A DNA stretch of 42,375 nucleotides from a virus (taxonomy: Duplodnaviria; Heunggongvirae; Uroviricota; Caudoviricetes). Made by a program: the position numbers. Below, one piece after another: positions 12,001 through 15,000 of the stretch (position 1 is the stretch's first letter; the number at the start of each line of letters is the position of its first letter). The DNA lies in IMG/VR virus record IMGVR_UViG_2802429217_000003, one strand, 5' to 3'.

Positions 12001-15000
12001 CTATGATAAACATGCAGTTGCAGTGTTGCTCATGTAAGGCGCGTAATTTCAATAGGACATCCAAACGTTAGTCGGAAAAAGCCGACTAAAAAAACTGAGT
12101 GGACAAGTAGTGTCCATTTAATTAATGCCATTTTGAGGGTATTGTTAACCGTGTGCATAATGTTCTGATTTATAATACAAAGAGCCTTATCATGTTAAGC
12201 CATTCCGATGTACATCAAACCATGATTACAAGAGAAATTATGACACCGCCAACCAAAATTGATACTTCAAGTCTACTTACCATACTGGGCGTTATTGCTG
12301 CCGTATGGGCCCTTATTACTCCAAACGCTCGACTACGTTTGAGGTTCTGCCTGGCGTGGTGGGATTGGGCAATTGTTGGTTTCGCATTCTTACTAAGCAA
12401 TTATTTGGTGTTTGCACCAGCTTTAAAATCACTAGACTTATATTTTAGTTTTGGCCCCTGGAAATGGGGATTAGATAGTTCAAGTGCCGTATACCTGATA
12501 TCACTCGCAGTTGCTATTTACATTTTATTTCGCTTAAAAAAACCTAAACTTTCAGTTGGAAGAACAGGAATATTTCTAGAGTTAGTGGAAAATTTGCACC
12601 TTACTAAACGATACGATGATCTGGCACAATTGTTGGCACCTCAACTAGAAAAGTTGATATCAATAATTGATAGTCCGGTGAAGAATCGACTTTGTGATAA
12701 GATAGCTAACAATCTCCGCATCTCTAATCGCGAGACTGCTGCCGAATATGCACATGAAGCATTATTAAATATTGTCTCATCACCTGAACTTACCAATCAC
12801 TTTGCACTTGCGCACCCATCCCTCTGCCTTGAGTTAATCAAGATCGAACCAATAGTTCGTTCTGACTTTACTTCTAATTTTATCAGTGCATTACTAGATT
12901 CACCTAACAGTCGTCTATATGTTGAGCTTAAAAATAATCTTAACGTTAGTCGAGGGCATCGTTTGTTGATCCCGAAAAACAATCGTATATTACATTTTTT
13001 CTTTTCCAATGCTAAGTTTGCGGCTGATTTAGCAATATACCGTGACATCGGTGAATATATCTACTGGAGGTTAGATGAAGATGAAAAAATTATTGCTACA
13101 CTTAATAAATCTTTAGGTTCTTATTCAGATGTTTCGAAGTATAAATGTCCTATTTACTCTGGGATCACGCTGTTTGAAATCATGGTTCATGAAGGTATTC
13201 ATCAGGGGCTTCAGGATCATTTATGGCTGCATTACTATACACATTTTGCAAAGAAAATCATAAAGAATATGAATAGGCAGTCGAATGAATATAGTGGTGA
13301 ATGGGAAACACCTTTTCACTTCCTTCTCTGTCATTTATTTAGCATCGCTATAAATTGGGCAGAACAATGCGAATGGATAGATGAAAGGGACATTCTTCAA
13401 GAAAATAAAGAAACAGAAAATTTCGATCTTCATTATATTTCAAAAGAGGCTACCAAATTACTTGGTGCTATGTTGGAGTTGGTTTTGCCTAATTCAAAAC
13501 TCACTTTGAAATCTAGGAAAGATATTCTTGGTATAATTGTGTCTTGTTACATTAGATTGAAAAGGAATAAAAAATTAAAAGACGTCGCTGACTCATTATT
13601 AATTTTCACAACTAGAGGCGAAGGTAATTTGGCATCGCCGTATTATCGTAAAGAACTTCTAGAAATATTCAATACACTTGATGATTATCGATTAAGAAGT
13701 GATGCTCCGGAATTCCGAGAAGCTATAGAGTCTGCGATTCAAGCAAGGCCTAATTAGGTAAATCAACCACCTGCATGGCGGGTGGTTTAGACATAGACCT
13801 CTAAGTACGCTTGGCAGAGGTACCAGTAAACTTGATAATTGGAGTTGTTCTCATCAGTCGTTATGAAAAATTTTGAACTTCTGCTTTTCGCTGTGAGTTA
13901 AACTGATGGACGCAAGACACTTATTGAACCGTTCTGCGGGTGATTCGTAGTCTAGCGTTTTTCTTGGCCGCTCGTTGAGCTGTCTGGCAACACTGTGTGA
14001 ACTGATAAGTCAGTTCCTTTTGGAAAATACTGTCTGAGTAATCTGTTTGTATTTTCATTTGAGCCGCGTTGCCATGGAGATTGATGATCACAGAAATAAA
14101 TCTGAATATATGTCGCTACAGTAAACCGGGTATGGCTGGTCATTTCAGCGCCCCGGTCCCATGTTAGTGTTTTATAAAGCTCAACAGGTAATTCCCGGGC
14201 TTGTCTGATGAGTGCAGATATAACCGTTATGGTCTTGTTGTCTCTGATTTTTGCCAGCATAACAAAGCGGGAATGGCGTTCTACGAGGGTGACGATAAAG
14301 GAGTTTTTCGAGCACTGGATCAGGTCACCTTCCCAGTGACACGGTATGGCTCTGTCTGCAACTTCAGGTGGCCTTTCGCTTATTGGTATCGTATCTGGGA
14401 TTGACCCTAACCCTTTCCCTTTAAGCGATGATGTTCTGGATCTACGAACCGCTCTTCCGCTTCTGAGGCATTGCTGCAGTTCTTTTTTTAATGCACCCCG
14501 GGTTTGTATAAAAAGCGTTTTATAAATCGTTTCGTGTGACACATGCATTTCCTGATTATCCGGATAACAGCGTTTCAGCCAGCCGGCGATCTGTTCCGGC
14601 GACTAGTCCTGATGCATCTTCTCTGCAATGATTTTACACAATGTGGGCTTTCAATTAGCTTGCAAGGTTTTGGTCTCAGAGCATTTTCCCATGCAGCAGT
14701 ATCGGCTTTTGCTGCACGGTATTGTTTGGCACCTCCGTGCCTCCTGACCTCGCGGCTAATCGTTGAAGGCGCTTTTGATAATTTGGCGGCGATGTCCCTG
14801 ATACTGAGTTTTGCTACCACTCCTCTGGATATCTCCTCTCTTTTATCAAGCGAAAGCGCTAATCGGTACCGTTTTCGCACGGGAGGACAGTAGCTCCCTG
14901 TCTGGTGGATAGTGGGCATAATGGAAGAATGATATCTGTCGAACATTCTGGCGATATCATGGAGAGAATCACCTTGCTTATATCTGTCCCAGATAATTGC

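Follow-up and report, generated by a model that had tools for sequence, protein, structure and literature searches.

The DNA considered here is a stretch of 42,375 nucleotides (nt), referred to as the window, from the IMG/VR virus record IMGVR_UViG_2802429217_000003, and it is identified as a Rac-like lambdoid prophage of Escherichia coli. Between DUF977 and sok/hok the prophage carries a block of ~6.2 kb with a GC content of ~37%, in a region where the prophage has ~50% GC. The block contains an open reading frame (ORF) for a membrane protein, a decayed IS30-family insertion sequence (IS) and a gene encoding an Mrr_cat domain and an nSTAND1 nucleoside triphosphatase (NTPase) domain, hereafter the STAND gene. 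Upstream of the ORF lie DnaC/IstB-like, DUF1627 and DUF977 genes, and downstream of the block lie sok/hok, DUF1367, YbcO and a Q-like antiterminator. Our subject is the membrane-protein gene. It belongs to a family that is accessory cargo of temperate phages, phage-plasmids, integrative and conjugative elements (ICEs) and integrative islands and that has no fixed partner, and judging from the limits of its homology to other elements, 11945-13891 forms an AT-rich cassette with a single gene that moves horizontally as a unit of its own.

The ORF is intact on the + strand and ends at a stop codon at 13757, and it can be read from a GTG at 12153 (534 amino acids, aa), an ATG at 12192 (521 aa) or an ATG at 12240 (505 aa). 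The initial annotation of this locus, which was made from the sequence alone, had placed an ORF of ~520 aa at 12192-13757. The intact frame and its stop were borne out, but the start was not, and 12240 is taken as the likely start because the homologues all begin with MTxxxxIDT at the Met encoded there and because the RefSeq annotation is 1518 nt long. The coding sequence (CDS) of 505 aa at 12240-13757 (+) is assigned to phrog_13820 from ORF calls, family alignments and a full-length profile match (E=0, 1045 bits; aa 17-521 of the 521-aa ORF against positions 1-505 of a 505-position profile). Ahead of it, the non-coding part of the cassette (11945-12239, +) is presumed to hold the promoter, and its left edge is that of the module common to a 94% identical sister allele in a CP4-57-like island. 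A promoter scan gave a sigma-70-like site at 12133-12161 that scores 9/12, and such sites were no commoner near the gene than in shuffled sequence.

Just past the stop codon is a stem-loop (13763-13791, +) that is terminator-like but has a weak U-tract. RNA folding of 56 nt around it (13750-13805) gave a minimum free energy of -18.1 kcal/mol with a z-score of -3.0, and the hairpin sequence is kept in three relatives (loci L001 and L040 and the Enterobacter locus L016), so the hairpin that had been noticed earlier after the gene is real. It is followed by a cassette tail (13792-13891, +) that abuts the IS. The window and the sister allele are homologous between 11945 and 13891, the last base before the IS; in a blastn comparison of the window with L001, 11945-13824 aligned at 92.3% identity, and the 6.2-kb block in common with the island version begins at ~11954. 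We regard the cassette as a stand-alone unit because the homology to the 94% allele covers only 11945-13891, the hairpin is conserved and no recurrent partner was found. Of the two options that the initial annotation had left for the gene, partner or stand-alone effector, it is the second that agrees with a cassette that has its own conserved upstream region and terminator-like hairpin and that occurs in unrelated contexts with no recurrent neighbour.

One possibility that had to be considered is that the ORF is a chance reading frame or a pseudogene. A word-indexed search returned 164 relatives of 500-580 aa from Gamma- and Betaproteobacteria, with ~39% as the lowest identity among the matches listed. 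An exhaustive profile search, in which family clusters were made at 50% identity, returned 828 cluster representatives at E<=1e-3, a lower bound, and 388 at E<=1e-30, nearly all of them full-length and 500-590 aa long. Two or three N-terminal hydrophobic segments are kept in 122 of 134 full-length distant members. Pairwise ratios of nonsynonymous to synonymous substitution rates (dN/dS) among the enterobacterial alleles are 0.19-0.24, and they are lowest in the membrane region (0.06-0.17). A chance ORF or pseudogene was therefore rejected, since the large family, the conserved length and the low dN/dS indicate that the gene is real. The family has no entry in Pfam, NCBIfam or PADLOC 2.0 and is catalogued only as the unknown-function PHROG phrog_13820. 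The protein matched no Pfam family at E<=1, and in NCBIfam it gave only noise; ten divergent relatives likewise had no match in either database. A sequence-profile search of the PDB gave a best E of 0.24, which is not a meaningful match, and a literature search by RefSeq accessions and the PHROG identifier found no paper mentioning the family, with keyword searches giving analogues only.

The product is predicted to be an inner-membrane protein with a short periplasmic N-terminus, three transmembrane (TM) helices and an all-alpha cytoplasmic helical-repeat domain of ~400 aa. Hydropathy places the membrane domain at 12267-12536 (+), with TM1 at 12267-12320 (aa 10-27), TM2 at 12360-12425 (aa 41-62) and TM3 at 12480-12536 (aa 81-99), which agrees with the three N-terminal hydrophobic segments and the large domain outside the membrane that had been noted before. 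The N-terminus and the loop between TM2 and TM3 are neutral, the loop after TM1 carries a charge of +3 and the stretch that follows TM3 has +6/-2; the positive-inside count thus points to an N-out/C-in orientation, in which the large domain is cytoplasmic. Between TM2 and TM3 lies a predicted periplasmic loop rich in Trp, FGPWKWGLDSS, whose residues are at least 90% conserved in an alignment of 121 sequences (A2) that defines the subfamily of the query. An AlphaFold (AF2) model built from this alignment (pLDDT 84.4, pTM 0.78) consists of helices only, with no beta-sheet, and its structure matches are generic HEAT/ARM-like repeats only. Periplasmic enzymes of the O-antigen-modifying type are common beside phage integrases, and this candidate was rejected on the positive-inside count, which puts the large domain in the cytoplasm.

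One feature of the cytoplasmic domain is the sequence HEGIHQGLQDH (H317-H327; 13188-13220, +), which lies at the end of the helix spanning residues 304-321 and in the loop that follows. The HEGIH reported previously is indeed present (aa 317-321, nt 13188-13202), and it had been flagged as a possible, minimal zinc-metallopeptidase signature. It is conceivable that the protein is a membrane-tethered zinc metallopeptidase or other metal-dependent hydrolase, with H317, H321 and H327 as metal ligands and E318 as the catalytic base, and that, like the Lit protease of prophage e14, it would act by cutting a protein of the host or of a phage. The residues have the HExxHx5H spacing, which occurs in metzincins and in zincins of the WLM/SprT type, and the helix bearing the motif stops at H321, after which come the conserved G323 and a loop to H327. 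H321 never varies in the 121 sequences of the subfamily, where H317, E318, D326 and H327 reach at least 90% conservation, and an HExxH would be expected by chance only ~0.024 times in this protein.

Against a metalloenzyme stands the behaviour of these positions outside and even inside the subfamily. In a set of 153 representatives drawn from the wider family, only 16 have His at position 317, where Ser (41), Thr (25) and Leu (18) are all commoner; E318 is kept in 94, H321 is kept in 67, and position 326 is mostly Trp. A distant homologue from an Stx phage (22% identity, E 4e-25) has VSTAIFKRSKNN opposite HEGIHQGLQDH, and two members of the subfamily itself have Tyr at 317 (P0007) and Gln at 318 (P0018). 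The catalytic motif is thus not conserved throughout the homologous family, whether in the 153 representatives, the Stx-phage homologue or close relatives. Moreover, the zincin fold, a helix on a mixed beta-sheet, is not seen in the all-helical AF2 model, no protease fold appears among the structure matches, and no peptidase family is matched in Pfam at E<=1 or in NCBIfam. The peptidase reading of HEGIH does not survive these comparisons: a classical zincin protease is not supported by sequence or model, and what remains is a subfamily-specific HExxHx5H cluster on a predicted non-zincin scaffold. We accordingly consider a metal-dependent hydrolase quite improbable.

What is conserved across the whole family is a different set of residues. 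E229 (150 of 153 representatives), H327 (146) and E354 (138) are near-universal, and N248 (132), N289 (126), N233 (124) and an acidic residue at 313 (124) are also kept family-wide. From this residue conservation we propose a putative polar patch of Glu, Asn and His on the helical-repeat domain. The HExxHx5H of the subfamily may have been formed by the addition of H317, E318 and H321 around this family-wide His/Glu patch, and a metal site at the patch is possible.

The next gene in the block raises the question of whether the membrane protein works with a partner. The STAND gene, with a CDS at ~15370-18003, belongs to a module that has its own upstream region and occupies 15096-18131 (+); its Mrr_cat and nSTAND1 domains score above the Pfam gathering thresholds. 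The initial annotation had suggested as one option that the two genes are partners, separated by an IS30-type insertion with its own 2-bp target duplication, and that they had previously lain ~410 bp apart. According to this two-gene explanation, the membrane protein would work with the Mrr-nSTAND1 NTPase as effector or sensor in one system that was later split by the IS. The two genes do share orientation and low GC, as had been noted (36.7% for the membrane gene and 36.2% for the STAND gene, on the same strand, compared to 49.8% in the flanking prophage). Furthermore, among 5,426 E. coli complete genomes, 82 match the membrane gene and 35 of these have the STAND gene as well, and in 35 of 35 genomes with the STAND gene the membrane gene accompanies it. 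The 6.2-kb block also travels as a unit in two kinds of element, since the membrane gene, IS30 and STAND gene together occupy the slot in a CP4-57-like island in 28 of the 35 genomes and a Rac-like prophage in the other 7.

However, the same decayed IS30 lies between the two genes in all 35 genomes, at an identity of at least 98.7%, and the 35 co-occurrences therefore represent one block and a single evolutionary event. In ~40 E. coli genomes the 94% allele of the membrane gene sits in a CP4-57-like island and is followed, where the STAND gene would be, by a hypothetical gene for a 274-aa protein. No STAND homologue occurs in any of 21 other distinct loci that bear a family member, and conversely no ORF within 6 kb of the STAND homologues of Pantoea stewartii (95% aa identity), Vibrio parahaemolyticus (67%) and Pseudomonas (68%) matches the family profile, even at E<=10. 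The hairpin, in addition, closes the first gene. The distribution of the two genes refutes the partnership: outside one E. coli lineage there is no co-occurrence in either direction, and we judge a split two-gene system to be extremely improbable. The conserved co-occurrence and the metalloprotease fold that a partnership or a protease would have led one to expect were both looked for, and neither was found.

The 274-aa protein (L001, L002 11141-11965), which fills the slot held elsewhere by the IS30-STAND segment, has weak matches only (LeoBC, E 0.004; tape-measure-like PHROGs), and it may be another swappable cargo gene. The Mrr_cat-nSTAND1 NTPase itself is 877 aa long and has no PADLOC match; single-gene homologues of the same length occur in Proteobacteria, Firmicutes, Planctomycetes and Acidobacteria. 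The STAND gene is listed in Table S10 of the DefensePredictor study as a predicted novel defence gene with a log-odds of 6.17 (PMC13092281).

How, then, did the two modules come to lie side by side? The IS30-family element (13892-15095, -) is 1204 bp long, its transposase is decayed by a frameshift and an internal stop and is a pseudogene in RefSeq, and its inverted repeats are imperfect (22 of 34 positions match). An IS30-type element between the genes is thus confirmed, but the supposed 2-bp target duplication is not, since the GC/GC flanks are a match with a chance expectation of 1/16. Homology on the right flank to an ICE locus of Pantoea stewartii extends, at 89.7% identity, over exactly 15096-18131 and so begins at the first base after the IS, just as the homology of the membrane-gene cassette ends at 13891. 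An IS-free junction, which would read ...TTTTCGCCGGAAGCGG..., did not turn up in the 5,426 E. coli complete genomes, and a search of metagenome contigs for it as an exact 22-mer had no match. The earlier spacing of ~410 bp is correct as arithmetic (406 bp), but it presupposes an ancestral arrangement for which these ends and the absent junction give no sign. Since the IS is bordered at either end by the limit of a module that is mobile in its own right, the most economical view is that an IS30-associated rearrangement joined the two, for example recombination between two IS copies; the GC/GC flanks would then be a 1-in-16 coincidence or reflect a target preference. The evidence suggests that the IS created the junction rather than interrupting an earlier one. 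The resulting composite unit (~11954-18133) would subsequently have spread from island to prophage, or in the reverse direction.

The wider distribution of the family is that of a mobile accessory gene. Members are found in variable cargo slots of a Rac-like prophage, Stx phages, phage-plasmids, CP4-57-like islands, an integrase-adjacent island and a Delftia locus. In the enterobacterial CP4-57-like islands the gene is opposed to its neighbours and adjoins a DUF2971 gene, in Pseudomonas aeruginosa it lies in an integrase-adjacent island beside pheST, and in Delftia it directly abuts a Lamassu system at a locus that also has a DnaE2-like polymerase gene. In Stx1a and Stx2c phages a distant homologue adjoins int in 24 phage records; the copy in one Stx2c phage (L021, 4995-6548) encodes a 517-aa protein with the three-TM-plus-helical architecture and no His cluster, and it is unannotated in the deposited records. 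The GC content of the gene is 4-11 points under that of its surroundings in every context checked. A pattern-based scan of representative genomes of 100,044 species found only 18 loci, so the distribution is sporadic.

A homologue is present in 115 Klebsiella plasmids; most of those listed are non-mobilizable and ~110 kb in size, and the position of the gene in them is nearly constant. The IncFIB phage-plasmids L041 and L042, which were inspected, have it at ~5857-7590, between phoH and replication genes, with alleles that share 73% and 52% identity with the query; other records listed have a 71% allele. The flanks of L041 and L042 are 84-98% identical to each other, whereas the aligned parts of the gene are only 66-69% identical, a pattern that indicates allelic turnover at a conserved position.

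An all-vs-all comparison of the neighbours at 22 distinct loci revealed no recurrent partner, the sole repeat being a convergent DUF3800 (Lamassu-type) gene at three loci, and the gene is often opposed in orientation to its neighbours. Its immediate neighbours include, besides Lamassu/DUF3800 at these three loci, Shedu, PDC-S02 (a YhcG-type PD-DExK protein), a type II methyltransferase and a PtuB-like HNH protein. A wider radius of 4.5 kb adds Zorya III, GajB, a DRT reverse transcriptase, PDC-M11A, AriA/AbiL-like ATPases, mad3 and integrases. Defence genes of several kinds often adjoin members of the family, and in the window the adjoining gene is the STAND gene, for which DefensePredictor predicts a defensive function.

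What might such a gene do for the elements that carry it? Our preferred reading, which we hold with confidence evenly divided between belief and doubt, is that the protein has a role in defence or exclusion, as a stand-alone membrane-located determinant that excludes phages or other mobile genetic elements. It would act alone, either excluding superinfection or bringing about abortive infection. Binding or sensing may be the task of the cytoplasmic solenoid, which might hold a metal at the His/Glu patch, and the highly constrained membrane domain with its Trp-rich loop may localise the protein to the site of DNA entry, or may itself be the effector.

An alternative is that the gene is cargo unrelated to phage defence, either with a function for the element itself (anchoring in replication or partition, entry or lysis control) or as a host-fitness 'moron'. 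The homologue in the 115 Klebsiella plasmids, beside phoH and replication genes in the two that were inspected, is what one might expect of a gene that serves its element, and the generic protein-binding role of HEAT/ARM-like solenoids fits many such functions. Yet the family occurs in unrelated types of element, in slots that otherwise hold defence genes, and its alleles are strongly diverged within conserved flanks. Its sporadic distribution (the 18 loci of the 100,044-species scan) also speaks against this alternative, as does the fact that the loci examined are all accessory slots and none lies in a core phage gene module. On balance we think it rather unlikely, while giving it appreciable weight, that the gene serves a purpose other than defence.

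Several observations weigh against a defensive role and should be set beside those in its favour. No model of PADLOC-DB 2.0.0 matches the protein or the ten divergent relatives, and the absence of any known defence model agrees with cargo of another kind. Accessions of the membrane protein were not found among the rows listed from the DefensePredictor supplement (PMC13092281), an absence that is uninformative. The association with defence neighbours is qualitative, and some loci are flanked by housekeeping genes, which would also suit a non-defence cargo gene. The near-constant presence of the gene in Klebsiella phage-plasmids could mean that it has a role in the life cycle of the element. Finally, the sensing and effector steps proposed above are inference only.

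The nearest counterparts among known systems are membrane-located anti-phage systems that consist of a single protein, for example SNIPE (PMC13190303), Tmn (PMC13001434) and the KwaA component of Kiwa (PMC11785009). Like these, the family protein is predicted to combine N-terminal TM helices with a large cytoplasmic domain, it is accessory cargo found near defence genes, and by analogy it plausibly acts at the inner membrane where phage DNA enters. Unlike SNIPE it has no nuclease domain, unlike Tmn it has no P-loop NTPase, and unlike Kiwa it has no KwaB-type partner. No sequence or profile similarity to any of the three was found, and they are functional analogues only.

Comparison with other known proteins gives a similar picture of partial likeness. 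With the zincins (Lit of prophage e14, a peptidase of family U49, the metzincins and WLM/SprT) the protein shares HExxHx5H at the end of a helix, and lit is likewise prophage-borne; the motif is nevertheless not conserved in the family, the predicted fold is all-alpha with no zincin sheet, and there is no structural or profile match. The likeness to HEAT/ARM-like alpha-solenoids, among them designed helical repeats, is one of architecture only, at 4-14% identity with poor TM-scores and no match to a Pfam HEAT or Arm family, and unlike them the family protein has a membrane anchor and the conserved Glu/His/Asn patch. Avs-type STAND NTPases with an Mrr-like nuclease are resembled by the neighbouring gene (Mrr_cat and nSTAND1) and not by the membrane protein, which has neither an NTPase nor a nuclease domain and whose distribution is independent.

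If the family is protective, it would add a membrane-located, partner-less immunity protein unlike the catalogued systems, and its carriers include clinically relevant elements (Klebsiella phage-plasmids, Stx phages and E. coli islands). A bolder proposal, which we regard as improbable, is that the family constitutes a new and widespread class of single-gene inner-membrane alpha-solenoid immunity proteins in which the Glu/His patch forms a novel type of catalytic or metal site, elaborated in the close subfamily to an HExxHx5H on a non-zincin, HEAT-like scaffold; this would make it a new class of enzymes that act at the membrane on phage components as they enter. DefensePredictor lists 1,041 uncharacterised predicted clusters in E. 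coli (PMC13092281), and the gene described here is a well-delimited candidate with an undescribed architecture among many comparable genes of defence islands. The locus also provides a worked example of two unrelated cargo modules that appear to have been fused at either end of an IS30 and to have spread as a single block since, and it cautions against taking adjacency in a defence island as evidence of functional partnership.

Other features of the window concern the prophage itself. The window has two type I toxin-antitoxin RNAs. One is the RalA small RNA (190 bits, 1552-1730, +), antitoxin to RalR, by which the prophage is recognised as Rac-like; the other is the sok antitoxin (Rfam, 105 bits, 18334-18509, +), which adjoins the hokD-type locus at the right edge of the block. 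Further to the right, directly downstream of the Q-like antiterminator, are an ORF at 21049-21774 (+) for an ADP-ribosyltransferase like Pertussis_S1 and the A subunit of heat-labile enterotoxin (Pfam E 5.6e-15) and an ORF of 147 aa at 21856-22299 (+). The spot just downstream of a Q-like antiterminator is the classic position of toxin cargo in lambdoid phages. The 147-aa ORF, which has no Pfam match, encodes a hydrophobic N-terminus and is a candidate B subunit.

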